NCBI GenBank assembly: GCA_016188605.1
Contig: JACPHP010000015.1
Location: 18,833-82,832, forward strand
Direction of reading: 5' to 3'
Origin: Candidatus Spechtbacteria bacterium
GTDB taxonomy: Bacteria > Patescibacteriota > Minisyncoccia > Spechtbacterales > JACPHP01
Length of the DNA: 64,000 bases
Shown here: one piece after another, positions 28,106 through 59,440 of the stretch
Position numbering within the stretch: the stretch's first letter is position 1
Layout of the letters: each line of letters begins with the position of its first letter
Translations under genes and position numbers: made by a program
The notes under the pieces: generated by a model
Databases searched by the model: none
The model's input: only the letters and a program-made list of their open reading frames with translations
Told to the model about the DNA's origin: nothing

Positions 28106-28120
28106 TTAAATACTTTATAT

Positions 28121-38398: not shown

Positions 38399-38417
38399 CC
38401 TATTCTAATCATTCAAC

Positions 38418-40285: not shown

Positions 40286-40419
40286 GCACCCCGATGTTTC
40301 AAGGTGCCAAACCGGGCCGTCGATATGGACTCGCGGGCCCGATTAGCCTGTTATCCCCAGGGTAACTTTTGTCTGATGATCTTCTCCTTTTCTATGAAAA
40401 AGAGTCGGTTCACTAAGTT

Positions 40420-40545
40420 CTGCTTTCGCAACTTGCCAATGCTCCGCATTGGCACACTGATATACACAGATACGAACACGGATATACACCGATTTTATCT
40501 GTGTTAATCCGTTTTCTTATCCACGTTAATCCGTGTGTCAGTGCG
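40420..40545 (-). repeat. IVS-like insertion, family A copy 1 (in 23S, near E. coli ~2375)
   Basis: ccaatgctccgcattggcacactgatatacacagatacgaacacggatatacaccgattttatctgtgttaatccgttttcttatccacgttaatccgtgtgtcagtgcgaagcactgacatc. Identical to 44207-44332. Confidence 0.7.
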
Positions 40546-40693
40546 AAGCACTGACATCTTATACTCCCGCTTGATTTTACTCTCGAGGTTTCTAAGAGCG
40601 CGGCTTACTTGCCTTGCAGTAAAGCCAGTTTGTGCCTTTACGCGACCACTCCGATTTCCATCCGGAGTTAACTGACCTTAATAAACGCCTCCG

Positions 40694-41344
40694 CTACAAT
40701 TTAGGCAATGTGTTCCCTAGCATTCCTAGCTTATACCGCATTGATGGCAAAATATATGGATCTATCAATTCTACAAATTTTTCAACCGTAGAACTGTTTA
40801 TATACAATTGCCAAAGGTTTCTCTGCGGCCGCAAATGTGTTTGAACACCAAATTTATTTTCCAATATCTTAATTAGTATAAGATTTTCTGCTTTGGAAAA
40901 ACTTTGCGTATTCAATATCAGCGCGCGATGATGCTTTGATTTTATTGAGCCATCATCCATAAACCAAACTGCTAATACTAATGGCGTGAGCCAACGTTCG
41001 ATCTGTCTCGGTAAAACTTTATGCTTATCTTTATAAAATTGTTGGGCATAAAATCTAAACGCTCCATGACTGATCGTTGAAAACCAATGTTCACGATATA
41101 TCCTATCAAATACAACATGTTGTTTTTCTTGAGGCGGGGTTAATACCCATTCTTTGAATTTTTCATATAACCAAAGAGTGTATTTTTCCTGCCAATATGC
41201 ATGTTCAATCTTCAAACGATAGGTACGTTCGTGATTTTGGGTTTCAAGATGTCCATCACCAAGTAGTACACCAATGAGAATCTCTTTCTGCCCCTCCGAT
41301 AACCGAAGCGTTTGTTTATACGCCTCAATCTTCTTTGATCTCAT
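40694..41344 (-). CDS. LAGLIDADG homing endonuclease (two-motif)
   Basis: LIGVLLGDGHL and LAVWFMDDGS motifs. 216 aa. Confidence 0.8.
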   Translation of the reverse strand: MRSKKIEAYKQTLRLSEGQKEILIGVLLGDGHLETQNHERTYRLKIEHAYWQEKYTLWLYEKFKEWVLTPPQEKQHVVFDRIYREHWFSTISHGAFRFYAQQFYKDKHKVLPRQIERWLTPLVLAVWFMDDGSIKSKHHRALILNTQSFSKAENLILIKILENKFGVQTHLRPQRNLWQLYINSSTVEKFVELIDPYILPSMRYKLGMLGNTLPKL

Positions 41345-41626
41345 AAATGTAGGTGATCCTTACGGATCCTTATGGTCGCCCATAAGTTCAGACTATATCA
41401 CCCTCATTACTCCATAAAGTAATGAGTTTCAGCGTGTAGTCGTTGAGGGGAATGCAATCTTCAAAAATTATGCATTCTTCCCTGCTGATAAGCCGCATTA
41501 CGTGATTTTCACCCTTTCGACTAGGTACACGTACATACTGCATCCATTTAAGGAACGGTTTTCCCAGCATATAGCTGATTTTGCAATGCAATCTTACGAC
41601 TGCATGGCCCCTGTGGCTGTAGCAAG
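40706..41626 (-). mobile_element. Group I intron (I3) near 23S ~L2240, carrying a double-motif LAGLIDADG ORF in its 3' part
   Basis: Exon ...GGGGCGCTAGCCTCAAGAGT | intron | AGCGGAGG.... S-element GTGATATAGTCTGAAC at 41410-41396. The ORF stop TAG overlaps the 3' junction. Confidence 0.55.
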
Positions 41627-41949
41627 CCACTCTTGAGGCTAGCGCCCCACTAAAACTGCCTACCATCCACTGTTCCCTGTGTTTCGCGCAAGGTTAGTTT
41701 TTACATTTTAAAAGATGGGTGTTGCATTGACGGCTCCATCTCGCCCGAAAGCGAAACTTCAAAGCCTACCCACTACGCTACGCAGTCAAAATATAAAAAC
41801 AATGGAAAGCTGCAGTAAAGCTCCTGGGGTCTTTTCGTCTTGTTGCAGGACAACGGCATCTTTACCGTTACTGCATTTTCACCTAGCTCTTCGTTGAGAC
41901 AGTTGCCCAGTCATTACACCTTTCGTGCGGGACAGAAGTTACCTGCCAC

Positions 41950-42994
41950 AATTATGTTACTACCCCAAATACAAATTGAGGACGGAAAGAGCGCTTCGGC
42001 TCCTTCTCTCTATGTCGCCATAGAGTTCAGACTATATCACATTCTCTGGACGAAATCGTACAGAGAGCTTTGGCATGTAGTCGTTGAGGGTTCGTTGCAA
42101 TTTATCTAATTTTTTTCTTTGCGTTATATGTCGTAAAGGATACTGATGAAGAAATATATTTGCAAAAGCTATAATCGTACTTTTTGCATTTGTTTCCCAA
42201 TGACGCAATCCATCCTTTCGCTTTCTCGTATTCCCAAAACCCGTAAAAGCTTTGAGAAGAGAGATAATCTTTTCATCTTTCATTGCGACTGCTATATAAG
42301 GCTCAAGACGATCGTTGCTTCTTTTCCAGCCGAATGATCCTTCGCCATCAATCACTCCAGCTAAAAAATATCCTACCGCATCACGAGAACTTTCCAATAA
42401 AGAAAAACTCTTTTTAATGCGTCCTTCTTCCTTTACTCTCCTTAACGCTTTTCTATATACGCCCATCACTATTGTCTTGCGGCGATGCTCTGCATGACCT
42501 TTATGTTGGTCAAGATATGAAACCGCAGCGCGCATAATTCTAATTCGTTCATTTCCCAAATCGCCACAAATTAGTGGGTACGTGGCAAGAAATGATAAAA
42601 TTATCTTTACTTTTCTTTTACCTCGAAAAGAAAGATTTAGAGCTCCTTTTACTTTAGAAATAACTCCATCATCCTCTCCAACAATTCTATTTATATCTTC
42701 AAGTAATACTCTATCAGAATTAGTTACGGTAATATCTGGCATATAGTAATGCCCAACAGGATGCTTGTTCCGAAACTTAATTACAGAACAAGACATTTCT
42801 GCAGCAAAAAATCCAGAATAATAGTGATGCGAAACTTGCAACGTTTCCTGCTGATTGTCTGACGGCCAAAAATTGACCACACCCGCAGCATTTTTACTCA
42901 TTATATATATTATACACTGAGTAGCTTAGGTTCTCCAGATGTTCCAGCATATAGCCAAATTTTCCAATAAGAGTCACCTCTTATGGTCCCCTGA
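41950..42994 (-). mobile_element. Group I intron (I4) at 23S ~L1931 (after GCGAAATTCC), carrying a LAGLIDADG ORF
   Basis: Exon ...GGTCCTAAGGTAGCGAAATTCC | intron | TTGTGGCAGGTAACTTCTGTCCCGCACGAA. S-element GTGATATAGTCTGAAC at 42044-42031. Confidence 0.6.
42032..42901 (-). CDS. LAGLIDADG homing endonuclease (289 aa, degenerate first motif)
   Basis: YFLAGVIDGEGSF motif, and an upstream YYSGFFAAEMSCS degenerate copy. Confidence 0.75.
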   Translation of the reverse strand: MSKNAAGVVNFWPSDNQQETLQVSHHYYSGFFAAEMSCSVIKFRNKHPVGHYYMPDITVTNSDRVLLEDINRIVGEDDGVISKVKGALNLSFRGKRKVKIILSFLATYPLICGDLGNERIRIMRAAVSYLDQHKGHAEHRRKTIVMGVYRKALRRVKEEGRIKKSFSLLESSRDAVGYFLAGVIDGEGSFGWKRSNDRLEPYIAVAMKDEKIISLLKAFTGFGNTRKRKDGLRHWETNAKSTIIAFANIFLHQYPLRHITQRKKLDKLQRTLNDYMPKLSVRFRPENVI

Positions 42995-43397: not shown

Positions 43398-43439
43398 ATT
43401 TATAGTTACGGCCGACATTCACCGGCGCTTACAGCACGA

Positions 43440-43545
43440 GCCATCCTTCGCTCCTCACTTCGTGCGGAGCTACGGAGTGGCAAGCTGCTTTTACTGAAAG
43501 CATGCATCGCTCCGAAGCTCTTTGCGGAGCAAAGAGCGAAGGACG
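43440..43545 (-). repeat. Structured insertion, family B copy 1 (23S helix ~1850-1880 expansion)
   Basis: ccttcgctc...cttcg...ggagctacggagtggcaagc...gctctttgcggagcaaagagcgaaggacg with a perfect internal hairpin gctctttgc-gga-gcaaagagc. Related copies at 45405-45530 and 59285-59400. Confidence 0.6.
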
Positions 43546-44206
43546 ACAAGCGCTGTTTGACGTTCCGGCATTGGTCAGGTGTCACCCCCTATACATCCTC
43601 TTACGAGTTAGCAGGGAGCTGTGTTTTTGTTAAACAGTTGCCAGGCAAAATTTAACTGCGCCCATCTTGCGATGGGAAGGCATATTCCGAAGTTACGCCT
43701 AGCTTTTTTGCCGAGTTCCTTAACGAAGACTCGCTAGTTCACCTTGGGCTACTCGCCCTGCCTACCTGTTTCGGTTTGTGGTACGGGCCCAACTCATCTG
43801 ATCGTAGAGAATTTTCTTGGAAGACTGCTCTCTTAAATCGGTCTTGACGTGTCAAAACCTGTTTCCTACTTCATCGGTTTATACCATGCGGATTTACCTA
43901 CATGGCGACCTCAAAATAGAAACGTAAATCCAATAATACGCTTAAGATACAAATCTCCGTCATCCCATAGAAATGAGTTGAGGGGCTGGAATATTAACCA
44001 GCTGTCCATCCCCCAGAGCCTTTCGGCTGAGAGGTTAGGGCCGCCTAACCCTTGGATGATTGCCATTGCCAAGGAAACCTTAGGCTTTCGGTGGGCCGAT
44101 CTCGCATCGGCCATGCGGTTACTCATGCCAACATTCTCACTTCTCTACGCTCCACCGCCCCTCACGAGACGACTTCACAGCATAGAGAATGCTCTCCTAC
44201 CACGCC

Positions 44207-44332
44207 AATGCTCCGCATTGGCACACTGATATACACAGATACGAACACGGATATACACCGATTTTATCTGTGTTAATCCGTTTTCTTATCCACGTTAATC
44301 CGTGTGTCAGTGCGAAGCACTGACATCCACGT
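44207..44332 (-). repeat. IVS-like insertion, family A copy 2, at the classical 23S helix-45 (~1170) IVS site
   Basis: Identical to 40420-40545. Flanking exon TACCGAAGACGTG | A | GCGTGGTAGGAGAGCATTCTC aligns with E. coli 23S ~1160-1180. Confidence 0.7.
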
Positions 44333-44964
44333 CTTCGGTAATATATTTGAGCCCCGGTACATTTTCGGCGCAAGAACTCTCGACTAGTAAGCTGTTACGC
44401 ACTTTTTAAAGGATGGCTGCTTCTAAGCCAACCTCCTAGCTGTCTGAGAATTCTCACCTCCTTTTCCACTTAATATATATTTAGGGACCTTAGACTGTGA
44501 TCTGGACTGTTTTCCTCACGAGCGCGGAGCTTAGCCCCCGCGTTCTAACTCCCTTCTTATCAATTCAGGAATTTGGAGTTTGATTGATTCGCCTAGGCGA
44601 AAGCCACGACAAATCATCCAGTGCTCTACCTCCTAAATGAAACAGAAGAGGCCAGCCCTAGAGCTGTTTCGGAGAGAACCAGCTATTACCAGGCTCGATT
44701 AGTTTTTCGCTACTCCCCACAGTTCATCACATAGTTTTGCAAGGCTAACGTGTACGGGCCTCCCTCCAGTTTTATCCGGAGTTCACCCTGACCATGGGTA
44801 GCTCGCCTGGCTTCGGGTCTTATGTGTGCCGCCAAGTACGCCCTATTAAGACTTGGTTTCCCTACGCCTTCGTTCCCATCGGAACTTAGACAAGCGACAC
44901 AGATAAACTCGTTGGCTCATTCTTCAATAGGCACAGCGTCACTCCTCGCTACCGCTCGGAGCTC

Positions 44965-45095
44965 CGAAATCAAATCTCAAAAATCAAATCTCAAAATTGT
45001 GGTATCGCCTTGCGGCGATTATATAGTCTCGCAAAGCGAGACACCTTAGTTTTGAGATTTGAGATTTTAATTTTGAGATTAGAAGCTCGGAGCGA
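44965..45095. repeat. 'atctcaaa' word-palindrome element inserted inside the 23S gene
   Basis: ...gctcggagc|tccgaaatcaaatctcaaaaatcaaatctcaaaattg...ttttgagatttgagattttaattttgagattagaa|gctcggagc.... 9-bp direct repeat gctcggagc at both borders. Confidence 0.55.
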
Positions 45096-45162
45096 TAGCG
45101 ATAAAGCTCCGCTTCTCTGTAGGCATATGGTTTCAGGTACTATTTCACTGCCCTCACCGGGC

Positions 45163-45201
<39 letters not shown>

Positions 45202-45404
45202 ATCATCAAAAGTATTTAGCCTTAGCTAATAGTATAGCTAGATTCGCTCGAGGCTTTCGTTCCTCGAGTTACTCAAGAATAGCAACAGGAGATGTGAATT
45301 TTTCGTCTACGGGACCATTACCCTCTTTGGTCGCCCTTTCCAGGGACATTCGACTAAATTGCACATTTTGTGACTCCTTTGGATTGCTCCAATGCTGCCA
45401 TCTT

Positions 45405-45530
45405 ACAACCCCCATCCTTCGCTCTTTACTTCGTAAAGAGCTTCGGAATGGCAAGCCACTATATAAATTTCTGGCATGCTGTTCCGTAGCTCCTTGCGGA
45501 GCAAAGAGCGAAGGACGGGTTTGGGCTTTT
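45405..45530 (-). repeat. Structured insertion, family B copy 2 (23S 5' domain)
   Basis: ccttcgctctttacttcgtaaagagcttcggaatggcaagcc...ctccttgcggagcaaagagcgaaggacg. Confidence 0.55.
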
Positions 45531-45829
45531 CCCTGTTCGCTCGCCGCTACTGAGGGAATCATAGTTATTTTCTTTTCCTCCGCTTACTGAGATGTTTCAC
45601 TTCAGCGGGTGTGGGTTCCAGCTTGCGCTGGAAGAATGCGGTTTTGCCGCACTGAGTTTCCTCATTCGGAAATCCCCGGATCATAGGTTGCTAGGCACCT
45701 CCCCGAAGCTTATCGCAGCCATGCTACGTCCTTCATCCCCTTTTGATGTCAAGGCATCCACCATACGCCCTTAAAAATGTTTGCATGATGCAGTTAAATG
45801 CTCCTCGCTATGCTCGCTCGTCGCAGACG

Positions 45830-46427: not shown

Positions 46428-47111
46428 CTATCCGTTAATATCTTTTTTAATCCCTTCCAAAATTTCGCGGGCTACTCCCTGGCCACCGAGGCCGAAGGCT
46501 AATCCGCTCGCCAAGGCAAGCATGGCAACAATGCCCATAAACAACGTGTTGACCATGGCTGTTGCAACGCCAAGCTGGTTTAATGCGGCTAGAATACCAA
46601 ATGCCCACACAGCCCAACGCGTCACCAAGCCCACAAAACGAGATGAGCCACCAAGTTCAGTTGCCTGTAATGCTGTGCGTGTAGCTTTCTCTAAGAAATC
46701 ACCGAGAATTGCCGCCACCACAATTACGAGAGCCGCGACTACTATATTAGGAATATAGAGCACTATTTGCTGCAAAAATGTTGCGACAGCAGTTAACCCC
46801 ATAATCTCTACCGCGGCCATAAAGAACGCGATGACGAAAAACCATTTCACCAGCATGCCGAGTAAAGAACTTATTTCAATCGTCATGCCTGCGCGATGAA
46901 GCATTTGCGTTACAGAAAGCTGGCTCATAAATTTATCCAGCTGCGCCATTTGCAAAAGGCGCGTTACAACCATACCAAAAGCGACCGCAATAATCCAACC
47001 TACAATAAATACAATGATTGCCCCGAGAAAACTCGGAACGAATTGCATAAAACCTTGCCAAATTTGCTGCAAGGATACAACTACTACTTCACTCCATTGT
47101 TGTACTAACAT
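46428..47111 (-). CDS. Membrane protein with repeated conserved TM helices (MscS-N-terminal-like 'TM helix' repeats)
   Basis: 227 aa, four-plus TM segments with repeated AxxLG-rich pattern. Family assignment tentative. Confidence 0.4.
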   Translation of the reverse strand: MLVQQWSEVVVVSLQQIWQGFMQFVPSFLGAIIVFIVGWIIAVAFGMVVTRLLQMAQLDKFMSQLSVTQMLHRAGMTIEISSLLGMLVKWFFVIAFFMAAVEIMGLTAVATFLQQIVLYIPNIVVAALVIVVAAILGDFLEKATRTALQATELGGSSRFVGLVTRWAVWAFGILAALNQLGVATAMVNTLFMGIVAMLALASGLAFGLGGQGVAREILEGIKKDING

Positions 47112-47301: not shown

Positions 47302-47808
47302 TTACGATAATCGTTTAACTGATGTATACTCGAGAACTGATTGCACTAACCACGCAAACGTAATCGCAATTACAATGCTACCGATAATATCAACCCCGTG
47401 GTGCACGCCAACGTAAATTCGTGAAAAACCTACTATAATTGTCAACGCCCATAGCGCAATGCTAACTTTTTTATTAAACGGCCAAAGGGCAGCTGCAATC
47501 GCAGCGCTAATCAGTGTGTGATCGGAGGGAAAACCATTATCCGCCACATGCGCAATAAGCGGAGTGAAGCCATCAGTTACGAACGGCCGCGGGTAATAAA
47601 AGAAAAATCCCAAGATTTTTGCCGCGAGATAGGTCAACGGCAAAGCCAGCACAGCAAAAACAATCATCCGCTTTTGCACGTCACGCTTTTGCAACATAAG
47701 ATATGCTAACGCGATACCAATAATGGCAATAAAAAGATACTTAGCAGATAAAATAAAGAATAGAGAAGCTATGTCCATAATATTGAAGTTCACGACCCAT
47801 ATTAGCAC
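47302..47808 (-). CDS. PAP2-family phosphatase (undecaprenyl-diphosphatase-like)
   Basis: YPRPF ... FPSDH ... SRIYVGVHHGVD signature triad of PAP2 acid phosphatases. Confidence 0.7.
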   Translation of the reverse strand: MLIWVVNFNIMDIASLFFILSAKYLFIAIIGIALAYLMLQKRDVQKRMIVFAVLALPLTYLAAKILGFFFYYPRPFVTDGFTPLIAHVADNGFPSDHTLISAAIAAALWPFNKKVSIALWALTIIVGFSRIYVGVHHGVDIIGSIVIAITFAWLVQSVLEYTSVKRLS

Positions 47809-48126: not shown

Positions 48127-48200
48127 TGGTGGACCATGGGAGAATCGAACTCCCATCTCCCGGATGCAAACCGGGTGCTCTGCCACTAAGCTAATGGCCC
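48127..48200 (-). tRNA. tRNA-Ala (anticodon TGC), CCA encoded
   Basis: GGGCCATTAGCTTAGTGGCAGAGCACCCGGTTTGCATCCGGGAGATGGGAGTTCGATTCTCCCATGGTCCACCA. G3:U70 Ala identity pair present. Confidence 0.85.
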
Positions 48201-48278
48201 AAATTTTGAATATTTTGTTAAATATCCTCACTCCGCTGCGCTGCGCTCGGTGTAATCAAAAGAGGTGCACTGGAAAGT

Positions 48279-48313
48279 TTTCAGCCTGAGGCTGATCCGC
48301 CTCTGGCGGAAAA
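48279..48313. repeat. Twin-hairpin G+C-rich repeat (cagcc-tgag-gctg / ccgcc-tct-ggcgg), copy at the tRNA side of the foreign cassette
   Basis: ttcagcctgaggctgatccgcctctggcggaaaa. Inverted near-identical copy at 56162-56196. Related copies at 8281-8315, 56010-56030 and 56390-56415. Confidence 0.65.
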
Positions 48314-48377
48314 CCGCCTCGCTAAAGCGAGAGGCCAAACCTAAACTTTCCGACGAAAGCCAAGCAGTTGGCTTTCG

Positions 48378-48403
48378 TCCTCTGCCACTAAGCTAATGGC
48401 CCA
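48378..48403 (-). pseudogene. Partial duplicate of tRNA-Ala (5' 23 nt)
   Basis: ctctgccactaagctaatggcccaa identical to 48178-48203. Confidence 0.65.
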
Positions 48404-48519
48404 ATGCGCGCAAATTACAAAGCACAGAACACAAAAGCCAAACAAACCACAAAAGCACAAAATTACAAACACGAAACGTTTGGGATTTGTAATTTGTGTT
48501 TTGGAATTTACAAACCTAG

Positions 48520-48591
48520 TGGGCGCGGAAGGAGTCGAACCTTCCGCCTCTTTCTTATCAGGAAAGCGTTCTACCGCTGAACTACGCGCCC
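48520..48591 (-). tRNA. tRNA-Ile (anticodon GAT)
   Basis: GGGCGCGTAGTTCAGCGGTAGAACGCTTTCCTGATAAGAAAGAGGCGGAAGGTTCGACTCCTTCCGCGCCCA. Anticodon loop CTGATAA. Confidence 0.85.
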
Positions 48592-48711: not shown

Positions 48712-48739
48712 TTGACTTATAGTTTAATCGTTTTATAAT
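48712..48739 (+). promoter_or_regulatory. Near-consensus sigma70 promoter (TTGACT, 16 nt, TATAAT) for the 48822 gene
   Basis: Direct reading, followed by a leader with AAAGGAGGT SD 5 nt before GTG. Confidence 0.6.
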
Positions 48740-48821
48740 CACGACACTCTCTTGAACTGCACAGAAATGCAAACGAGAAGCTGTATTTTCACAAATTATA
48801 ACAATCGAAAGGAGGTATCTG

Positions 48822-50645
48822 GTGCTAACATCATTAGTTCCAGTCGAGTCATTACTCGACCCCGTTCTTGCTGCCGCAGTATGGCCTGAAAGTATTACAA
48901 GCAATGAAGTTTTCAAACAACAGCTTGAACGGCGCAGGGAGCTGATAAAACGCCTCGAAGACGTCATTTGCTCTCTGCCCCGGCCAGATATGCCTATCGG
49001 GACAGCTATTGATCTGGGGTATATCACCGAGGAACAAGTTGCGGCACTCTATGAATCTCTAAGCGATTTGCTGCAAGACCCGTACTACAAGCGCATTGTC
49101 TTCTATCTTCCATTTGAATTCTTGCCCAACAGAACGTGGGACCATTTCGGGGAAAAACTCCGACAGGTCGCTAGACTATTTAGGCAGGTATACATGGATG
49201 CTTGGTGGCATCTGCTTCTAGTGCAAGACGTACGCGCCAATTTCGTAGATGGCGACGTGCTTGAAGTAGGGCAGAGAGTCGGCGACTTGCCGCGAGTAGT
49301 GAAGGCGGCTCATCTCATACCCAAGCTCGTTGAAAACGGCTTGCTAGAGATTGAGGACGTCATATCTCTCATGGAAAAAGCCAACGATCAGGTGCTGAAA
49401 GATAGCATTGCCGATGCGCTCCCCGTTCTAGCAGATATGGGATTTATTCCAGATACAGAAGCTGACACAGAATCAGCTGAAGCAACACCAAAGCCGATTA
49501 CGCTTACATATGTTCGCAAAAAATTGGATAAAGCGTTCTCTAGAATAGATACTGAAGATTTCGGCAGTATCACGAAGGGTCGAAAAAATTGGCTTGTACA
49601 AAAAAAGAGGCAAGAAGCCATCGATGCCGCTGGAGAAGATATATGCACAGCAATCGTTCGAGGAGAGCTCTCTAATGAAATAACGGCGAGCTTTCTCGCT
49701 TACGGAGATTCTGCTATGCAGCGAGTGCTTGTCGAAGGAATTAGAGCGGCCATTGAGTCCGTCGCGCTAACTAACGTTAGCAGGGCGCACGCACTGTACG
49801 CTCAGTATAAAGAAACTTTGCTAGCACTTTGGGAGAGCGACGATCCTGATATCGGGGAAGCGCTATCCAAAACTTTCCGCCGGCTCCATTACCTCGGTAT
49901 TGTTGATGACCAACGGCTGTCGGAGTTAGGAATAGTCATTCCACGTCTCGCAGGACCTTTCTCTAAAAATCTTAGGTCAATGGGAAAGGACTTGCGCGAT
50001 ATAGAAACGATGGCCGCGTCTATCAAATGCAACAGCGAGCTGTCGCGGCTCATATACCCGGGGGTTCTCATGTACGGCTCGCGCATCAAGGGATACGGCG
50101 CGCAAAATTCTGATATTGACCTTGCCGTATTTGTGAGGCCGGGAACGCCTTTTGCTGGCAGGTCGGAGCTACAAAAACTACTTGGACAAACTTTCGCGCA
50201 TAATGCGATTCGCGGCCAAGTTGTTGAATTCTGGCTGGAAGAAAAGGGCGAGATACTTCGAATTCGTGACTTCAATAGTTCTGATGTATATCTGGGAGAA
50301 AGCTATTGGACACATGTCCTGTTTGGCGCCGTATGGATGGGCGGCGATGATACAATACGTGAGTTGTATGAAAAACTGCTGACTCCATATATGCGCGATG
50401 ACGGTAATATAATTTTTGGCCGCGGCGCAATAAGCATCTACTTGGAGGAAACAGAACGAGACACTCTACAGTACAGGTTGATGCATAAAGGATATGAACG
50501 ATTCTTCCCGCCATGCGGCGGCATACACACACCCCATTCAGATAGAATTAATGATAGTAGCATGTTCTGGGATTCGGGATACAGGCAACTTGCAACAATG
50601 CTGTTTGTAAGCAGAGTTTTTCTGCCGAATATCCCAGTTGTATAA
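48822..50645 (+). CDS. Large protein with C-terminal pol-beta-type nucleotidyltransferase domain (GS...DID minimal NTase core)
   Basis: 607 aa. LMYGSRIKGYGAQNSDIDLAVFV fits hG[GS]x9-13Dh[DE]h. ~400-aa helical N-terminal region of unknown type. Strong SD, GTG start. Confidence 0.5.
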   Translation: MLTSLVPVESLLDPVLAAAVWPESITSNEVFKQQLERRRELIKRLEDVICSLPRPDMPIGTAIDLGYITEEQVAALYESLSDLLQDPYYKRIVFYLPFEFLPNRTWDHFGEKLRQVARLFRQVYMDAWWHLLLVQDVRANFVDGDVLEVGQRVGDLPRVVKAAHLIPKLVENGLLEIEDVISLMEKANDQVLKDSIADALPVLADMGFIPDTEADTESAEATPKPITLTYVRKKLDKAFSRIDTEDFGSITKGRKNWLVQKKRQEAIDAAGEDICTAIVRGELSNEITASFLAYGDSAMQRVLVEGIRAAIESVALTNVSRAHALYAQYKETLLALWESDDPDIGEALSKTFRRLHYLGIVDDQRLSELGIVIPRLAGPFSKNLRSMGKDLRDIETMAASIKCNSELSRLIYPGVLMYGSRIKGYGAQNSDIDLAVFVRPGTPFAGRSELQKLLGQTFAHNAIRGQVVEFWLEEKGEILRIRDFNSSDVYLGESYWTHVLFGAVWMGGDDTIRELYEKLLTPYMRDDGNIIFGRGAISIYLEETERDTLQYRLMHKGYERFFPPCGGIHTPHSDRINDSSMFWDSGYRQLATMLFVSRVFLPNIPVV

Positions 50646-50648: not shown

Positions 50649-50677
50649 AAAGCCGTTGGTTTCACCAACGGCTTTTG
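50649..50677 (+). terminator. Hairpin aaagccgttggt-ttca-ccaacggcttt followed by tg/taatt
   Basis: Immediately after the 48822-50645 stop, between convergent genes. Confidence 0.55.
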
Positions 50678-50746: not shown

Positions 50747-51892
50747 TTAGTTACCGCTACGGCGGTGTTCAGTGCCAATACCGGTAAGCCGTTTACTTGC
50801 AGACGCGCTGGCGCTGAGCTGGTCCCAGGGAATCTGGGAGCCAAGCATGTACAGCGCGCCAAAGTACTGCAATTCTTCATTGCCGGCTGGCTGATCCTTG
50901 ACCCGCATGACCGCCAACACGAATCGAGTCAGGTTGGTCTCCAGCCGCGGATACGTGGCAGAAACCGCTACACCGAGCTGTCGAATCATCTGGTCACGGT
51001 TAGCGGCACCGATCAACGCTGGCAGACGGGTATTTTCCAGGGTTTCTTTGATCTTGGATGCGTCATAAGCGAGCGCAGCCGCGATCTGAACTCCCGTTCC
51101 CGCAAAAACCTTGTTTACAGAATCGGCCATTGCATCTGCTGCGTCACGCAGCCCGCCTGTATCCGGCGGCTGCATCATGCCCGAAGGCATAGCGCCACCA
51201 CCGCCGACCATCGCCATCATGGCATTCATCATAAGAGCAGGATTTGCTGCGCCCTGCACCCACGCATCCTGCCAGGATTTAAGCTGTCCATAGAAAGTCG
51301 TAATCGCTGGCCAAAGATGCTCATCAATGCGCTGAAAAAGCTGCTTCTTTCGCGCTTCAGTCACATACGAACCATCCAAACCGTCGATCGCCGCAAAGAT
51401 CTCAGCATAGCTGCGTCGCGTCATTTCCTTTCGAAGCTTAAAAAACTCCGGATCAACCTGCTCTTCGTTCGTATCCGCAAATCTCTCCATCAAGCCAGCG
51501 AGCACATCCGGGATACTGAAGAGGCCTGCCCGGTATGCCAGTGCCGCCCGAACTGCCGAAATAACAGTGGATTGATCAACCTTGAGGATTCCACCAGTTC
51601 GAAGCGCTTCCAGCCAAGAAGCATCGGTGGGCACTGCGGGAAGCACAGCATCAAAAGAAATGGCTCCCATTGTACTTACTGCGGGCGGCTCAGCCACTGG
51701 CTTAGCCGGTGCAAGCGCTTTGAGCAAATTCCTTGCCGGCAATACTTTCATGCCGACTCCGACGAGGTCTTGCTCTGTCAAACCAGCCAGATCTTCCACG
51801 GTCGTAGCACCAAGATCAGAAATAATCTTCTCAATCACTTCAGATGCAACGCCCATAGACTCAAGTTTGGCAGTTACTTCAGTGACTTCCAT
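50747..51892 (-). CDS. Hypothetical protein with N-terminal tandem helix-hairpin-helix-like segment
   Basis: GVASEVIEKIISDLGATTVEDLAGLTEQDLVGVGMKVLPARNLLKAL. SD AAAGGGG 8 nt upstream of ATG. Confidence 0.4.
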   Translation of the reverse strand: MEVTEVTAKLESMGVASEVIEKIISDLGATTVEDLAGLTEQDLVGVGMKVLPARNLLKALAPAKPVAEPPAVSTMGAISFDAVLPAVPTDASWLEALRTGGILKVDQSTVISAVRAALAYRAGLFSIPDVLAGLMERFADTNEEQVDPEFFKLRKEMTRRSYAEIFAAIDGLDGSYVTEARKKQLFQRIDEHLWPAITTFYGQLKSWQDAWVQGAANPALMMNAMMAMVGGGGAMPSGMMQPPDTGGLRDAADAMADSVNKVFAGTGVQIAAALAYDASKIKETLENTRLPALIGAANRDQMIRQLGVAVSATYPRLETNLTRFVLAVMRVKDQPAGNEELQYFGALYMLGSQIPWDQLSASASASKRLTGIGTEHRRSGN

Positions 51893-51914
51893 TTTCTTTA
51901 CCCCTTTCGCGGTT

Positions 51915-53300
51915 CTACCTGCACATCTTATCCCGCTCGGTACTTCCCAGCGAGATCATTCTAACTTGCACTCCCAGCTTTTCTCCAATTATACTGGCAC
52001 AAAACGAGTAAAGCTCGCTTGGTGTGGCGGGCGATGGAACTTTCAGGGTCGTAATTTCCGGCTTGCAGCGCGAAAGCTGTTTGCCGAGCGATTCCTGATA
52101 TTCCAACTGATTGTTATCCGTTCCCACACGGACTTTGATTGCGCCCGTGGGCGTAAAATATGTAGGATCGTCCGCGCCGAGATAACGGTCGCATATACGC
52201 CACTCTCCGTTAGCCACAATTTGATCGAACCATGTGACGGCCAGGCCATTGAATGCATTTGGGCCGCCGCAAACTTCTATAGCGTAACGAAGTAAAACGA
52301 GATCCAGCGCCCCTACGCGCACTTCTCCCTGATAGCGGTTGCTTTCTTTGTGACTGCCTGGAAGCAATCTTTCTGCCATCTCGGGATTGGCAGTAGGCAT
52401 CGGACCCGCACCGTGGCGAATTGCGTATGCTCGGAACACTCCGAAATTCACAATCTCTCCGTCGTAGCCAGCATCTATAAGCATCGCTTGCGTAAAGCAC
52501 GGCAATGTTCGAATGGCGCTTACGTGCGGATAGAAACCGTGAAAGTGATCGGTGATAACTCCGTGCGAGCTTTCAACTACAACCACACCGTCCCGAGCAA
52601 GGACTTCTCGCTCAAGATATTCATGGCCGACAATCTTAGCTCGCCGCGATACTTCTTCAAACCGTTCGGCAATATAGTCGAGGAAGCCGTCATCATAAAG
52701 AAGAGCAACTTCCTTTTGCATCGCCTCACGGTCGCTAGGCAAGAACTCGCCGCCAATAGTCTCGTTGAGATCGCTGCGTATTTGCTCTCGCACGCAAACA
52801 AGCAAATCTTTCAGATCGGGCCGCGACAAATCGCAGGCTCGAATCGTAAGATCCGGATACTGTTGCAAATAGCGATACGCTTCACCAACGCCTGTGCCAA
52901 TCGTGCCGCGAGGATTATTACCACGTGACATTTCTTTCAGGCGCGACGCAATTCCGTGATAAGGCGTGGCGCACAATGCCATTTCATCTACCGTCAGCAG
53001 ACCAAACGGATTGTGTATGCCGTGCTGATATCGAAGTGCGTCAGACTCATTAAGTAAACCTTCTGGAGAAACGATAAACCGAGCGGAGATATGCGTGTTA
53101 ATGCCTTCGAATGTGCCGCATCCCCACTGGCTGAAAGCAAAGCTCTCGCCACGCGAAGTGCGGACACCGTGGCTTCCCTGCGCGCCTCCGACTTTCACGA
53201 CGGTGTGGGCACGCATCATTGTTGCGATTTTGTGCACCACACCGCCCTTGCCGCCGTCACCAGGACCGAGGTCGGTGACGGTGTAGACTTTCTTGGTCAT
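51915..53300 (-). CDS. Divergent adenylosuccinate-synthetase (PurA)-like enzyme
   Basis: P-loop GPGDGGKGGVVHK (PurA GDEGKGK); VKVGGAQGSHGV (PurA GGHNAGHT); NPRGTIGTGVGEAY (PurA TTGRGIGPAY); ESSHGVITDHFHGFYPHVSA (PurA [21 protein letters not shown]); HGAGPMPT (PurA RVGAGPFPT). The aspartate-binding TTGRRRRTGW loop is replaced by SNRYQGEVRVG. ATG at 53300 with GAGGAAGGTGG SD. Confidence 0.6.
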   Translation of the reverse strand: MTKKVYTVTDLGPGDGGKGGVVHKIATMMRAHTVVKVGGAQGSHGVRTSRGESFAFSQWGCGTFEGINTHISARFIVSPEGLLNESDALRYQHGIHNPFGLLTVDEMALCATPYHGIASRLKEMSRGNNPRGTIGTGVGEAYRYLQQYPDLTIRACDLSRPDLKDLLVCVREQIRSDLNETIGGEFLPSDREAMQKEVALLYDDGFLDYIAERFEEVSRRAKIVGHEYLEREVLARDGVVVVESSHGVITDHFHGFYPHVSAIRTLPCFTQAMLIDAGYDGEIVNFGVFRAYAIRHGAGPMPTANPEMAERLLPGSHKESNRYQGEVRVGALDLVLLRYAIEVCGGPNAFNGLAVTWFDQIVANGEWRICDRYLGADDPTYFTPTGAIKVRVGTDNNQLEYQESLGKQLSRCKPEITTLKVPSPATPSELYSFCASIIGEKLGVQVRMISLGSTERDKMCR

Positions 53301-53310
53301 CGTCGCCACC

Positions 53311-53379: not shown

Positions 53380-54537
53380 CTAGAGCCAGTTGGGTCCGTC
53401 GTCGGAGTCCTCGTCTTCGGAATCTCCAGAAGTAGCCGAATCAATTTCACTAGGATCGACCGGCCAGAGGTCGGTCTTTTCCCTGAAAAGATCGCCGGCC
53501 TTCGGAAGCTTATCGAAGTTCGGAGAAAGCATCTGAGCTCCGAGAGGAATATGCGCAACTGCGTGAATAATCTGACGCGCACTGAATTCTGAAACATTAT
53601 GCTCCGTAAGAAATTCCAAAGCAGACCCCAGGCTCAGCACGCCCTCCATGAGACCGATGATTATTGCCTTTACACAGTGCAGGTTGTTCGTACCTTCAGG
53701 AAGCATAACGAAATGACCAGCTCCATACAAATCGCTCCACTGATCTGCAACATCCCGACGATTTCCAACCTGCAAAAAGAAGGCATGCGCCTTGGTCTGT
53801 AGATCCCTGACTACTTGCGCGGTGTTAGGCAGTTTTCCATTACTGAAGTCATAACCATTTTCTTTGGCATGCTCCAGTACGTCATCTCCGTAAATCTTCT
53901 TCAGCCAACGCGGATCGATAGTTTCAACGATCGGCTCGTCAGAGATCGTGAAGTGATAGTACTTCAAGCCCCATCGGTTAATCGCTGCATTAGTCAAGTA
54001 CACAGCGCCGAAAAGACCGAACTGTGGATCTTCCTTGCCGTTACCTTGACCCCTACGGCCAGGCACTAAATGAGTCATCTGGGAAGCAATTTTCTCGTCC
54101 ATCTCAAATTGAGTACGACATAGCACAGGCACGTCTTCTCCATCTTCAACGTCGTTGAATATGGCAGTTGCAATCTGAACGTCATATCGACCTAAAATAG
54201 GACGACTGCCGCTGGTCAGCATCTCGTAAGAACTAGGCAAGACATCAAATGCTGTATCTACGTTGCCCCCCATAGAACCGGTTGTATCTAGCAAATCTTC
54301 TTCAGCCATAGGAATACCGCAAGTCAGGACCCATAAGTTACCGCGCTTCTCAAAACGCGGCAGAGATCGACGAATGGGCCCGAGATGAGCAGGTCCTTTC
54401 GGATCCACCAGCGGATCTAGACCTTGTCCTTGGTGCATTCGCTCTTCAGCACCGCTGGTAGCTTTCTTGGTTCCATTAGACGTAGCGCTATAACGAACTC
54501 CGGTATAACCAGACCTTGAAAATGTATTCTTCCCCAT
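53380..54537 (-). CDS. Hypothetical protein with vWA-like (MIDAS DxTxS) segment and acidic C-terminal tail
   Basis: LLDTTGSMGG MIDAS-like motif. C-terminal SGDSEDEDSDDGPNWL. SD AAAGGGG upstream. Confidence 0.4.
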   Translation of the reverse strand: MGKNTFSRSGYTGVRYSATSNGTKKATSGAEERMHQGQGLDPLVDPKGPAHLGPIRRSLPRFEKRGNLWVLTCGIPMAEEDLLDTTGSMGGNVDTAFDVLPSSYEMLTSGSRPILGRYDVQIATAIFNDVEDGEDVPVLCRTQFEMDEKIASQMTHLVPGRRGQGNGKEDPQFGLFGAVYLTNAAINRWGLKYYHFTISDEPIVETIDPRWLKKIYGDDVLEHAKENGYDFSNGKLPNTAQVVRDLQTKAHAFFLQVGNRRDVADQWSDLYGAGHFVMLPEGTNNLHCVKAIIIGLMEGVLSLGSALEFLTEHNVSEFSARQIIHAVAHIPLGAQMLSPNFDKLPKAGDLFREKTDLWPVDPSEIDSATSGDSEDEDSDDGPNWL

Positions 54538-54567: not shown

Positions 54568-55380
54568 CTACAATGATTCCGTAGTGAAAGGATGATACTT
54601 GCGCTCCCAGAGCAAATCGATTAGTTCATAGAACGCCAAGTGCGCTCTTTCCGCGTTGCTCTCGCTACCGCGGGCTAGACGCCAAAGATAGTCTGTGTAC
54701 CTACGAAAAGCCTCGTCGCCGTCATTTGGGATTGTACCCGTTTTTAGGTCGCCTCCCAGCGCAACAACAACCGATTGCGCCGCTTGAGAAATCTCTTGGC
54801 GCCTAACCTCTACGGGAACTGTGTCGGTATGTATCTGCGCGAATGACCATTCAAAAATCACCACATAGTGTTCCTTCGGCTCAATCACTATATTCTTCCC
54901 GCTCAACAAGTTAACCGAGATTCCTTCGTTGTGCAAGAACGCAAGCAACTTGAGAAGTTTGCCCATAATCCATGCGCTAGTGCGCAAATCAACCCGCAGG
55001 CGGTCTTTTGCCGTGATGTTAATCAGCGGCACCATATCGCCTACATTCTCTACATTCCTAAACGCAAAAACATTAACTTGACGCCCGCCCTGCTCAGTAC
55101 AGATGAAGCTATCCATAAGCTCGGGGAAACCAAGCTGGTAGTTAAGAGGTTCATCGGGACGAGCGTACTCCACTTCGAGCTCTTCAGCACGGCGCTGCAG
55201 TTCTTTAAGAATATAGGCGGCACGCTGAAGCGCGCCGTTGTCCTTAGTTTCGTTAGCAATCTGCAAAATATATTCGCGCTTTACTCCTTCCTGCGTACAT
55301 AGGTAAAGCCGATATTTGCCGGCTTCTGCTACCTTTTTGCCGACTTGATAAACGTGATGACCATTGCGTATAGTGATCAC
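54568..55380 (-). CDS. Protein-kinase-like fold protein with degenerate catalytic motifs (atypical kinase or pseudokinase)
   Basis: LHNEGISVNLLSGKNIVIEP resembles the HRDLKPENI catalytic loop with D->N. DFG replaced by IFEWSF. Likely GTG start at 55380, preceded by SD GAAAGGAGGG. The track ORF extends to 55536 through the leader. Confidence 0.4.
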   Translation of the reverse strand: MITIRNGHHVYQVGKKVAEAGKYRLYLCTQEGVKREYILQIANETKDNGALQRAAYILKELQRRAEELEVEYARPDEPLNYQLGFPELMDSFICTEQGGRQVNVFAFRNVENVGDMVPLINITAKDRLRVDLRTSAWIMGKLLKLLAFLHNEGISVNLLSGKNIVIEPKEHYVVIFEWSFAQIHTDTVPVEVRRQEISQAAQSVVVALGGDLKTGTIPNDGDEAFRRYTDYLWRLARGSESNAERAHLAFYELIDLLWERKYHPFTTESL

Positions 55381-55391: not shown

Positions 55392-55668
55392 CCTTTCGTA
55401 CTTGTATTGTAAAGGGACACAATAAACTAGTGCTGATAGTATTGTGTATAACCTGTCTTGTCAAGAGCGGCGTAAGTAACCCCTCACACCCCTCGTGAGT
55501 CATTGCGAGCCCCAAGGGGGCGTGGCCCGCCAGCAACGCCTTAAGCGTAGCTTTGGCGGGCTGGCAATCCCGCTCGTATGTGGTAACGAGATTGCTTCAC
55601 GCTACGCTCGCAATGACGTATAATAAGATTTTGATATAGGGGGTGTGGGGGGTTACCATAGCGACGCA
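55392..55668 (-). promoter_or_regulatory. Structured ~280-nt 5' leader of the cassette operon (candidate cis-regulatory RNA)
   Basis: 12-nt perfect inverted repeat GTCATTGCGAGC ... GCTCGCAATGAC enclosing ~100 nt of nested G+C-rich stems (agcgtagc/gctacgct, cccgcc/ggcggg). No match to a riboswitch class I can name. Confidence 0.35.
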
Positions 55669-55678
55669 TTATATGGCA

Positions 55679-55706
55679 TGATTCCTAATGCTCAATATAT
55701 TTTAAA
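55679..55706 (-). promoter_or_regulatory. sigma70-like promoter (TTGAGC, 16 nt, TATAAT) reading into the cassette operon
   Basis: Direct reading on the minus strand. Confidence 0.5.
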
Positions 55707-55796
55707 AGAACTTTATTTAAGATTAGCAAATGGTGATAATAGTGTCAATAGTACACTATTAACAGGTTAAAATTTTATGAATTATTTATGCGGTTT

Positions 55797-55838
55797 TGAA
55801 TTTCACTTATCATACACGGCCGTGTATGATAAGTGAAA
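55797..55838. terminator. Perfect 20-bp-arm palindrome atttcacttatcatacacgg-ccgtgtatgataagtgaaat
   Basis: One of a run of hairpins (also 55920-55945 and 55960-56000) downstream of the 16S 3' end. Confidence 0.5.
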
Positions 55839-56161
55839 TTCAAAATGTTAACAAAATAATCCACCTATGATAAAGCAGAGGCAATAAGTATCACAAACAA
55901 AACAAACTAGTTCTTCGGGGACGGCAGAAATGCCGTCCCTTTTTCATACAATGCAAAACCCTCTGCCTTAGGCAGAGGGTTTTGCATAACTGACAGAATC
56001 ATTGCGTAAAGAAAATTTCTTATCCGCCTCAGGCGGAACATTGAACATCTAAGAGTTGCTCCAAATTGGTAACTCTTTTCTTGCGAAAAGAGATTTTAGT
56101 CTCAGACATTTGAAGGCTTTGAGACTAACGCCTTGCCTACCTTTAGCTAATCATACAGAAG

Positions 56162-56869: not shown

Positions 56870-57893
56870 GGATCAATGAGCATATCATCGTCCCACGCCA
56901 CCGGACGAACGGTTTTACCGTATCCTGGCGGCTTCCATCGAATGCTTCTTGCCAAGAAAACGCATCTGTTCACGCAATCGCACCATTTCGCTGAAACCCT
57001 TATCTGTAAGGTGTTCTTTATTGCGATACATAGTGACAATTCTCTTAAACAGTATGTATGTTTTTGCTTTCTTTGCTTGAAGATGATTTGCATCTAAAAA
57101 TGGAAAAAGATACGCTACCAAATCTTTTGAACTGGTAATTTTATACTTCGCGTGGGGGTACCATCCGTACCTCTCATACGAGCAATCATATATTTTCCCA
57201 CAACCAATTGTCACAAGAATTCGTTCGAGGATTTCACGATCATCTGCGCGGAGTTCGATTTCAAACTCGGCACGTATTTCGACAGAGCGAGGATGTTTAT
57301 AATCTCGTTCTTTTCGTTTTCCAACGCTTACCGCAAACGATCCTTCACCATCAATGAATCCTGCGACATATTGAGGAGGCAATTTTTTTCGATGAATTCG
57401 CTCCTTTCCAATCGGACCCTTCAAAGATAAATTTCTTTGGAAAGGTTTACGACTGGTACTACGAGCTCTGCTGACTTCTTGCATGGAATAAATAAAAATT
57501 ACTTTCTATCCTTCTATAATCCCAAGGTTATTTTACCGTGGAAATTAATACCAAACAAGATCTCCCCCGGTCATCTATAAAACAATTTGAAAACATCTCG
57601 ATCACCCTATACGTAGCAATAAATATACACAAAGTGACTTCCCCATGTACTCGAAGGGTGGTCTTATTACTACGCCTCAACAGTGATTCAAGCTATCTTC
57701 TGCTACCCTCGATTGTAGTTGTAACTATAATCGAGACCAAGTTTAACTTGATTTCGCCCTTCATCCTGGGGGTCACCCCTCGCAGGACTGCGATTTTGCT
57801 TCAAAGCGCTTTGTTCGCTTCGGTTGGACTTCTCACCAACAATAAAGTGGAAAGTCACCAACTCGTTCCATAAACTGCAGGGCACCCGAGTAC
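56870..57893 (-). mobile_element. Intron in 16S at ~S1391-1396 (after CTTGTAC) carrying a LAGLIDADG ORF
   Basis: Exon discontinuity CTTGTAC | ~1 kb | ACCGCCCGTCAC. No canonical S-element seen, so intron subclass is uncertain. Confidence 0.5.
56915..57484 (-). CDS. LAGLIDADG homing endonuclease (single-motif)
   Basis: YVAGFIDGEGSF motif. 189 aa. Confidence 0.8.
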   Translation of the reverse strand: MQEVSRARSTSRKPFQRNLSLKGPIGKERIHRKKLPPQYVAGFIDGEGSFAVSVGKRKERDYKHPRSVEIRAEFEIELRADDREILERILVTIGCGKIYDCSYERYGWYPHAKYKITSSKDLVAYLFPFLDANHLQAKKAKTYILFKRIVTMYRNKEHLTDKGFSEMVRLREQMRFLGKKHSMEAARIR

Positions 57894-58357
57894 AAGACTC
57901 GGGAACGTATTCACCGCGCCATAGCTGATGCGCGATTACTAGCGATTCCGGCTTCATGAGGTCGAGTTGCAGACCTCAATCCGAACTGGGGCTAATTTTG
58001 ATGGGATTTGCTCCGCCTTACGGCTTGGCGTCCCTCTGTAATTAGCCATTGTATCATGCGTGTTGCCCAGGGCATCAAAGGGTCATGCTGATTTGGCGTC
58101 ATCCCCACCTTCCTCCCCGTTATGCGGGGCAGTATCGTGTGACACATATAACACACAATAGGGGTTGCGTTTGTTACCGGACTTAACCGAGCGCCTCACG
58201 GCACAAACTGACGACAACCATGCAACACCTGCCCAATTGTCCTTGTGAGACATTCTCCCTTTCGGGAGAACTTCAACTGGGTGTCAAGCCCTGGTGAGGT
58301 TCCTCGTTTGTCATCGAATTGAACCGCATGATCCACCGCTTGTGCGAGTCCCCGTCT

Positions 58358-58389
<32 letters not shown>

Positions 58390-58796
58390 ACCCAGGCGGA
58401 ATACTTAACGCGTTAGCTTCGCCACGTGTAGGGTCGACACTACACACAGCTAGTATTCATCGTTTACAGCGTGGAATACTGGGGTATCTAATCCCATTCT
58501 CTCCCCACGCTTTCGTCCCTCAGCGTCAGAGTCATGCCAGCTGATTGCCTTCGCCTTTGGTGTTCCCCATGATATCAACGGATTTCACTCCTACACCATG
58601 AGTTCCATCAGCCTCTCATGCTCTCTAGTTTTGACGTTTCCTGCGCAGATTCAAGGTTAAGCCCTGAAATTTAACACTGGACTATCAAAACCGCCTACGG
58701 ACGCTTTACGCCCAATAATTCCGGATAACGCTCGGGGCCCTCGTATTACCGCCGCTGCTGGCACGAGGTTAGCGGCCCCTTATTCCTGAAGTACAA

Positions 58797-58940
58797 TCAA
58801 ACCGCTCCTCGCTACGCTCGGAGCACACCGATAAACGCAGATACGAACACGGATATACGCGGATATAATAATCCGTGTAAATCCATTTTCTTATCCGTGT
58901 GAATCCGTGTACGTTCCGAACGCAGTGAGGAACGGTCTTT
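58797..58940 (-). repeat. IVS-like insertion (family-A-related) in the 16S ~450-480 variable loop
   Basis: ~140 nt absent from E. coli 16S between ...CTGAAGTAC and GAAAAGCAGTTTACAACCCGAAGG. Shares cgaacacggatatac / ccgtgt words and a ccgaacgcagtgaggaac end with the 23S copies. Confidence 0.6.
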
Positions 58941-59284
58941 TTCCTTCAGAAAAGCAGTTTACAACCCGAAGGCCTTCATCCTGCACGCGGCGTCGCTCGG
59001 TCAGGCTTTCGCCCATTGCCGAAGATTCTCGACTGCAGCCTCCCGTAGGAGTAGGGCCCGTGTCTCAGTGCCCTTGTTGGGGGTCGTGCTCTCACACCCC
59101 CTACCCGTCATAGCCTTGGTGGGCCATTACCTCACCAACTAGCTGATAGGCCACAGGCCATTCCAGTACCACCTGAGTTTTACTTGCTCTTGCGAGCAAG
59201 ACCATCAAGTATTAGCTCCGATTTCTCGGAGTTATTCTTGAGTACTGGGTATGTTCCTATGTATTACTAACCCGTTCGCCACTA

Positions 59285-59400: not shown

Positions 59401-59408
59401 GCCTTATC

Positions 59409-59440
<32 letters not shown>

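Follow-up and report, generated by a model that had tools for sequence, protein, structure and literature searches.

We use a combination of sequence comparison, structure modelling and genomic context to study gene E, which occupies positions 48822 to 50645 (plus strand, GTG start, stop codon included in the end coordinate) of a 64,000-nucleotide stretch of DNA from Candidatus Spechtbacteria bacterium, hereafter the window. Its 607-residue product is 100% identical to the NCBI 'hypothetical protein' HYV65_03315 of that bacterium. Judged from its sequence, E is probably a catalytically competent nucleotidyltransferase (NTase) of the minimal (MNT) type within the pol-beta superfamily, and the best description of it is a variant within that superfamily whose minimal-NTase architecture is new. 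The gene recurs in convergent orientation with an operon of partner genes (A-B-C-D in the window) that is predicted to belong to the NrtR regulon. The reading that we lean towards, with rather less than even confidence, is that E, as a constitutive and scaffolded protein nucleotidyltransferase, would regulate an enzyme module responsive to NAD/ADP-ribose. One 'hypothetical protein' is thus turned into a defined and testable system, in which the new elements are the minimal-NTase architecture, the obligate partnership with a PurA-like ligase whose substrate pockets are rebuilt, and the predicted NrtR input tying the system to NAD/ADP-ribose homeostasis.

The enzymatic assignment begins with the motif LMYGSRIKGYGAQNSDIDLAVFV, in which G419 and S420 are followed by ten residues and then by D431, I and D433 (codons at 50076-50120, plus strand). 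An earlier note on this DNA, made from the letters and the open reading frames (ORFs), had recognized the GS-x10-DID signature of minimal NTases at about residue 410, and we confirm it at G419 to D433, inside a predicted minimal pol-beta-type core of residues 405-507 (50034-50342, plus strand). The superfamily motif hG[GS]-x9-13-Dh[DE]h, which spans beta1-alpha-beta2, takes the form Y-G419-S420-x10-D431-I-D433-L in E. In a set of 164 E orthologs with a mean pairwise identity of 38%, G419 and S420 are conserved in 100% of sequences and D431 and D433 in 99%, so that the motif is near-invariant and not a chance occurrence. Metal-site residues kept at 99-100% at this level of overall identity are the signature of a maintained active site.

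The pol-beta superfamily places its third catalytic carboxylate in an h[DE]h pattern on the adjacent beta strand. The earlier note had expected an acidic residue for the second metal downstream of the motif, and such a residue is found in E469 (codon at 50226-50228, plus strand), the centre of V468-E469-F470 on the modelled strand beta3 (468-475), 36 residues past D433. This candidate is assigned from the superfamily pattern, its conservation and its position, the alignment to solved MNTs not being significant that far. Of the 164 orthologs, 140 have E at this position, 1 has D, 15 have Q and 8 have another residue, giving an acidic residue in 141 sequences (86%). That Q, K, A or M replaces E469 in the remaining ~14% of orthologs, and that the helical solenoid dominates the protein, could be taken to mean that E is a catalytically dead NTase acting purely as a structural scaffold of the module; we regard this as very improbable, given that the glycine, the serine and both metal-site aspartates are conserved as in a maintained active site. 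Profile models agree on the location of the core: Pfam Polbeta, Pfam NTP_transf_2 and NCBIfam MntA all align at residues 415-477, every one of them below its curated cut-off (22.8 against 26.9 bits for Polbeta, PF18765, and 20.7 against 21 bits for NTP_transf_2, PF01909), and precomputed PF18765 or PF01909 matches are present on some E orthologs.

To place the core within the whole protein we use an AlphaFold2 model built on 112 homologues (pLDDT 91, pTM 0.90). In this model the motif lies within the beta1-alpha-beta2 unit of an alpha/beta core (residues ~405/411-507), which is preceded by ~400 residues of helices and followed by a helical domain of ~100 residues. The earlier note's description of some 400 helical residues ahead of the motif is thus matched by modelled domains, while its suggestion of a PAP/OAS-like substrate domain at the C-terminus finds no support: the region is a helical domain without any match of the PAP, OAS or KNTase type. 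The core resembles solved minimal NTases structurally, and its closest folds are MNT antitoxins. For the whole protein, Foldseek against the PDB returned no solved homologue (best E-value 0.02, to generic repeat proteins), and profile searches against PDB sequences matched the NTase core alone.

The scaffold divides into an N-terminal HEAT/ARM-like helical domain (residues 1-215; 48822-49466), a variable linker of low model confidence (residues 216-227; 49467-49502), a middle helical domain (residues 228-404; 49503-50033) with conserved R254, W257, G306 and E312, and a C-terminal helical domain (residues 509-607; 50346-50642) with conserved E545, R552, H555, S580 and D584-S585-G-Y587-R588, all on the plus strand. 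The N-terminal domain carries three near-invariant motifs, P97-F98-E99, D136-V-R138-A-N140-F141-x-D143-G144-D145 and R158-VVKAA-H164. Near-invariant polar residues beyond the core include E99, D136, R138, N140, D143, D145, H164, R254, W257 and E312, together with E545, R552, H555, S580, D584, Y587 and R588 of the C-terminal domain. The most conserved loop (residues 135-160) is also the part of the N-terminal domain that is modelled with the lowest confidence, a combination that suggests a ligand- or partner-binding surface. Two more specific interpretations of these motifs were rejected: a fused HEPN domain marked by R158-x5-H164, since the motif sits in the HEAT/ARM-like domain and R158 is conserved in only 89%, and an HD phosphohydrolase motif in 'HDVRAN', since the histidine is not conserved and is Q in the window protein. 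We also rejected the few homologues of 782-826 residues as informative domain fusions, their extra length being only a helical insertion of ~190 residues at the linker.

Candidate expression signals flank the gene. A sigma-70-like promoter, TTGACT-16-TATAAT (48712-48739, plus strand), agrees with the consensus at 11 of 12 positions and is assigned, with its function, from that agreement; an AGGAGG Shine-Dalgarno sequence (48810-48815, plus strand) is read 6 nt ahead of the GTG, and the opposite strand is closed by many stops. Between E and the convergent gene D lies a 12-bp hairpin (50649-50675) with A/T-rich runs on either side, which is placed to serve both genes as a candidate bidirectional terminator. 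Of the related loci, 80% have a hairpin of -12 kcal/mol or stronger no more than 85 nt from the stop codon of E, and convergent transcription with a shared terminator is therefore a conserved feature. As its sequence signals have it, E is a separate transcription unit with its own promoter and terminator.

The constancy of the partner genes is what turns a single gene into a module. A tblastn search of 79 loci with the window proteins locates C in 69 loci and B in 65, while A and D are present in 53 and 51; the order is always E> <D <C <B <A, and most of the missing partners are explained by truncated contigs. All long contigs examined have E in convergent orientation to this one operon, with flanking genes that differ entirely from contig to contig. 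The earlier note had placed a PurA-like gene next to E; in the window this gene, C, is the second one downstream, with D in between, and it is the association that holds, being kept in 69 of the 79 loci. Clustering of ORFs reveals a second variant of the module in 8 loci (L035, L043, L045, L048, L068, L069, L072 and L079), arranged as E> <C <B <H <B' <G <I. This variant is without the pseudokinase-like and SAM-domain genes (A and D) and has instead a classical AAA ATPase (G, 652 residues, PF00004 at 4e-22), a pyruvate-kinase-barrel/HpcH-like protein (H, 309 residues, 1.4e-8), a second vWA-like paralogue (B') and a 235-residue protein whose one inspected member has a His-rich C-terminus. The two variants share E, C and B, which therefore form the invariant core of the module, and the pairwise-identity matrices of these three proteins correlate with one another (r of 0.69, 0.56 and 0.70).

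Gene C (51915-53309, minus strand) encodes a divergent PurA-like ligase. The protein aligns with PurA end to end (Pfam Adenylsucc_synt 8.5e-37; PDB profile 2.8e-33) and matches a phage PurA/PurZ-like PHROG at 4.5e-46, and, mapped onto solved E. coli PurA, it retains the Asp and Lys of the P-loop, the catalytic His (corresponding to H41) and the Asp that specifies guanine (corresponding to D333). It differs from that enzyme at N38 (Q in C), T129 (V) and Q224 (H), and the aspartate loop TTGRRR becomes YQGKVR. Scores of 83-91 bits against PurA equivalog cut-offs near 400, together with the altered pocket residues, argue that C is not a bona fide PurA or PurZ. What C has in common with PurA and phage PurZ is the full-length alignment and the core catalytic residues, whereas its substrate pockets are rebuilt; it looks like a ligase, probably GTP-dependent, with a new substrate pair.

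The product of gene B (53380-54537, minus strand) is vWA-like, as two invariant elements, D83-x-T85-x-S87 and D199 (the latter in an 'hhhhSD' setting), form a MIDAS-type pattern and a few members give weak VWA_4 matches, three in all. Gene A (54568-55380, minus strand) encodes a protein-kinase-like protein, with matches to a phage 'kinase' PHROG at 1.4e-11 and to the catalytic-loop region of CK2 at 1.4e-6. The conserved Lys that anchors ATP is missing (Q in 28 of 39), as is the catalytic Asp, while the loop Asn is kept and the DFG Asp mostly kept, and by these residues the protein is pseudokinase-like. Its likely start, read from the sequence and from ortholog lengths, is a GTG at 55380 after AAGGAGG, the mechanical ORF reaching 55536. 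The product of gene D (50747-51892, minus strand) combines a SAM-like domain at the N-terminus with a central domain of unknown type and, at the C-terminus, a [ST]GIG(G) with a basic tail; an alternative form, D2, has an unrelated core and shares with D only the SAM-like N-terminus and the '[ST]GIGG' with its short basic tail. In protein B, a low-complexity linker of acidic or basic character leads into a conserved C-terminal '...WL', which is 'WKL', 'WQL' or similar in most members of variant 2. These terminal motifs of B and D/D2 look like docking peptides and may serve docking or modification. A 399-residue ORF lies antisense to D (50765-51964, plus strand), with ORFs of the same kind in 7 loci. 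Most likely it merely shadows this conserved gene; gene calls and tblastn favour the one on the minus strand.

Now we consider how the module may be regulated. Genes of NAD metabolism recur near it, namely an NrtR-like regulator (NUDIX plus NrtR_WHD, Pfam 2e-24), nadE, NAD kinase, a pncA-like isochorismatase and an ADP-ribosylglycohydrolase; such genes accompany 14 of 38 E lineages (clusters below 50% identity) and are present in 14 of the 45 loci that span 14 kb or more. A palindrome search in the nrtR-containing loci yields an operator motif, TAGTGT-N7-ACACTA, which with up to one mismatch occurs at 36 sites in 1.05 Mb of loci, compared with a mean of 3.0 and a maximum of 7 in block shuffles, a 12-fold enrichment. 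The sites precede the A operon (11 sites, the commonest single target), the B/H junction of variant 2, and the pncA-like, nadE, nadK, ADP-ribosylglycohydrolase and nrtR genes. NrtR sites are known as 21-bp palindromes with a GT-N7-AC core, and ADP-ribose frees NrtR from DNA (Rodionov et al. 2008, PMC2330246).

In the window, the operator is a 12+7+12 palindrome, TGATAATAGTGT-N7-ACACTATTAACA, at 55734-55764, with a perfect TAGTGT-N7-ACACTA core at 55740-55758. It stands ~45 nt upstream of the -35 element of P1 (TTGAGC-16-TATAAT, 55668-55695, minus strand), one of two promoter-like sites of the A-B-C-D operon that we identify by consensus match, the other being P2 (55436-55464, minus strand). 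When sites with up to two mismatches within 400 nt upstream are counted, 16 of 40 A operons have one, as against 4 of 67 E genes. The partner-operon palindrome thus has the GT-N7-AC core of NrtR sites and is common to nrtR, nadE, the pncA-like gene and nadK in the same loci, while the module departs from the NrtR regulon as known in that none of its proteins is a known NAD enzyme and in that no operator precedes E. Because the NrtR-type operator lies ahead of the A operon and not of E, we predict membership in the NrtR regulon for the partner operon but not for E, and the operon would then be switched on together with the NAD salvage genes upon accumulation of ADP-ribose. The ORFs scanned in the window include no NrtR gene.

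Two further elements lie close to the operator. Just upstream of it, at 55794-55845, is a perfect 52-nt palindrome with 26-nt arms and no spacer, which could terminate the upstream unit or bind a protein. The leader of gene A contains, between the two promoter-like sites, a GC-rich segment of ~119 nt (55499-55617) that is enclosed by perfect 12-nt inverted repeats, GTCATTGCGAGC and GCTCGCAATGAC; it is present in a single copy in the window and resembles a small inserted element. The 5' end of A's mechanical ORF falls within this segment, which supports the shorter start at 55380.

Drawing on this arrangement, we propose a mechanism in which E would be made constitutively, apart from the partner operon with its NrtR-type operator, and the A-B-C-D operon is predicted to be turned on with the NAD salvage genes once ADP-ribose builds up. 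The solenoid of E would dock the partner proteins, perhaps through the conserved C-terminal peptides of B and D, and the core would transfer a nucleotide, most likely AMP, to a hydroxyl group on one of them, with the PurA-like C as the most plausible target. This modification would set the activity of the module post-translationally, as GlnE does for glutamine synthetase and as MntA, which controls HepT by nucleotidylation, does for its toxin. A fuller version, which we put forward more tentatively still, is that the five genes constitute an unrecognised, CPR-specific (Candidate Phyla Radiation) NAD/ADP-ribose-responsive branch under NrtR, in which a PurA-like ligase with a new substrate, assisted by the MIDAS/vWA protein, would be switched by a protein nucleotidyltransferase of a new class, MNT-type and scaffolded on a solenoid.

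The same evidence bears on a different proposal, in which E is a small-molecule NTase of an NrtR-controlled biosynthetic or salvage pathway, adding a nucleoside monophosphate to a metabolite made or used by C (for instance an NAD- or ADP-ribose-related nucleotide, with a dinucleotide-type product). We judge this unlikely, yet several observations fit it: the operon of its partners shares its operator with NAD salvage genes, genes of NAD metabolism lie clustered in the vicinity, the nucleotide-type ligase C has substrate pockets that are remodelled, variant 2 adds a pyruvate-kinase-barrel-like enzyme, the invariant polar residues outside the core of E (H164, R138, N140, E99, R254, E545, R552, H555, D584 and R588) could line a ligand pocket, and there are weak sequence matches to lincosamide NTases. 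However, E is without an operator and in a separate convergent unit, which is unusual for a pathway enzyme, and a 400-residue solenoid is atypical for enzymes of this kind, none of the KNTase or Lnu type being matched structurally. The patchiness of the family (~500 clusters) and its tie to B and C also argue that E is no general replacement for NadD. If the small-molecule proposal were true, it would mean a new NAD-related metabolite pathway.

The family to which E belongs is narrowly distributed. In a word-indexed search we find at least 332 full-length homologues of E at 45-61% identity, all from Patescibacteria-type sources. An exhaustive profile search of 1.84 billion representatives gives 568 matches with E-values up to 1e-3, 474 of them up to 1e-30, and most of the 150 matches listed have 560-660 residues. 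With only 568 matches, mostly at E-values of 1e-30 or below, the family is a discrete island in sequence space that has no detectable outliers. From these searches, the family comprises about 500 clusters and is confined to Patescibacteria (CPR). The GTDB species representatives that carry E are spread over many lineages of the CPR, among them Parcubacteria orders, Microgenomates and Saccharimonadia, at identities of 27-56% that do not track taxon labels. Some E-bearing metagenome-assembled genomes (for example L007, L017, L021 and L061) are labelled Gammaproteobacteria, Omnitrophota, Deltaproteobacteria or Fimivivens; these labels are probably taxonomic errors or the result of mis-binned contigs. 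Searches of IMG/VR, INPHARED phages and PLSDB plasmids gave no match to the family. The CPR/Patescibacteria, which account for a large share of bacterial diversity, have minimal metabolism and rely on hosts to supply nucleotides and cofactors; no role has been assigned to most of the proteins specific to their lineages.

Variable flanks, integrases near some copies and identities that do not track taxon labels are what one might see for a CPR-specific conflict system, anti-phage or toxin-antitoxin-like, in which E would be an MNT-type antitoxin or guard that uses nucleotidylation to silence an effector complex (PurA-like, vWA, kinase-like or AAA) directed at nucleotides or NAD. The MNT antitoxins that are the closest folds to the core and the strong independent promoter of E fit such a role, and vWA, AAA and kinase-like components are reportedly typical of NTP-dependent conflict systems. 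We nevertheless find this role improbable, since PADLOC gives no matches for A-D and only weak PDC-S09 matches for the NTase core, the module includes no HEPN or other recognisable toxin, the family is absent from the phage, viral and plasmid collections named above, and an NrtR-type operator shared with housekeeping NAD genes points to metabolism.

The position of gene E in this particular genome is peculiar, as the gene lies inside a split rRNA operon of the minus strand (38414-59454) without overlapping any rRNA gene. The order in this fragmented operon is 16S (57844-59454), ~9 kb of protein genes, tRNA-Ile and tRNA-Ala (48130-48591), two protein genes, an intron-bearing 23S and 5S (38414-38525). 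The two protein genes between tRNA-Ala and 23S are of the PAP2 (47302-47808) and MscS-like (46428-47111) kinds. The 23S gene is matched as two pieces (43414-45770 and 39731-41869) and is interrupted by LAGLIDADG ORFs (42032-42901 and 40694-41344) and a group I intron (39875-40311); a further LAGLIDADG ORF (56915-57484) lies just downstream of 16S. We rejected the possibility that E is a spurious ORF antisense to rRNA, as Rfam puts 16S, 23S and 5S elsewhere, and likewise a functional tie of E to its rRNA and tRNA surroundings, the setting being peculiar to the present window. Farther away, a TdeIII-type restriction endonuclease gene (Pfam 6e-76) beside a 533-residue ORF (15468-17864, minus strand; GC 0.36 against about 0.45) is probably a restriction-modification island, and two very large adjacent ORFs of 1220 and 1102 residues occupy 24327-31429 on the minus strand.

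Finally, we compare E with the known families of its superfamily, of which it has the motif, the third carboxylate and the core structure. A full-text literature search found no description of the E family or of the gene module. For poly(A) polymerases, CCA enzymes and TUTases, the MTPAP-like_central model gives 17 bits against a cut-off of 27 and no PAP or CCA structure is among the matches. That E is an enzyme of RNA 3'-end tailing or repair acting on tRNA or rRNA is thus a far-fetched reading, even though it belongs to the pol-beta superfamily, has weak sequence matches to GLD-2 and MTPAP-like palm domains, lies between a 16S rRNA gene and tRNA-Ile in the window, and has RNA-associated proteins among the weak matches of its solenoid; the rRNA/tRNA context does not recur in other loci. 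For the aminoglycoside and lincosamide NTases, LnuB reaches 14 bits against a cut-off of 525, and no KNTase or Lnu structure is listed among the matches.

We see as little promise in a signal synthase of the CD-NTase/SMODS, OAS or HalB-like kind, whose cyclic or linear oligonucleotides the partners would sense. The GS...DxD core is present and a phmmer match to HalB (Hailong) can be found, but the latter is not significant (E-value 0.12 over 66 residues) and the module has no HalA-type channel. The fold with a helical substrate domain that marks the CD-NTase, cGAS and OAS enzymes returned no structural match to E, PADLOC gave no CBASS or Hailong matches, and there is no effector or channel gene nearby, all of which speaks against the oligonucleotide-signal synthesis that the earlier note had raised as a possibility.

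The MntA/MNT antitoxins of type VII HEPN-MNT systems are the nearest relatives in structure (PDB 7ae2_B, 5yep and 8xeh, and HI0073, 1no5), and it is with their fold that the core of E is best compared. The likeness ends with the core: MNTs are stand-alone proteins of ~100-140 residues beside a HEPN toxin, whereas E has 607 residues, 80% of them in a helical scaffold with no relation to MNTs, and is partnered by a PurA-like ligase and a vWA-like protein. On the MntA equivalog model (NCBIfam NF047752) E scores 25.7 bits where the cut-off is 60, and no HEPN toxin (Rx4-6H) is found among the neighbour genes.

The comparison with GlnE is of another kind, a functional analogy only, drawn from established knowledge. 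GlnE also sets a pol-beta NTase domain in large helical domains and is expressed apart from its target, and it adenylylates glutamine synthetase, a ligase that works through a phosphorylated intermediate, so as to tune a metabolic enzyme. A clear match to a known family such as GlnE was one outcome that the earlier note had named as overturning its interpretation, and no GlnE relationship was found for E, which has neither a match to the GlnE or GlnD_UR_UTase domain models nor a glutamine synthetase or PII partner. If our preferred reading of E as a scaffolded protein nucleotidyltransferase is true, it would be a second case in which a scaffolded pol-beta NTase controls an enzyme in the manner of GlnE, probably together with a new nucleotide-ligase reaction. 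Should the fuller version, with the module as a branch under NrtR, also be true, ultra-small symbiotic bacteria would have both a new enzyme chemistry and a new, GlnE-like layer of regulation.

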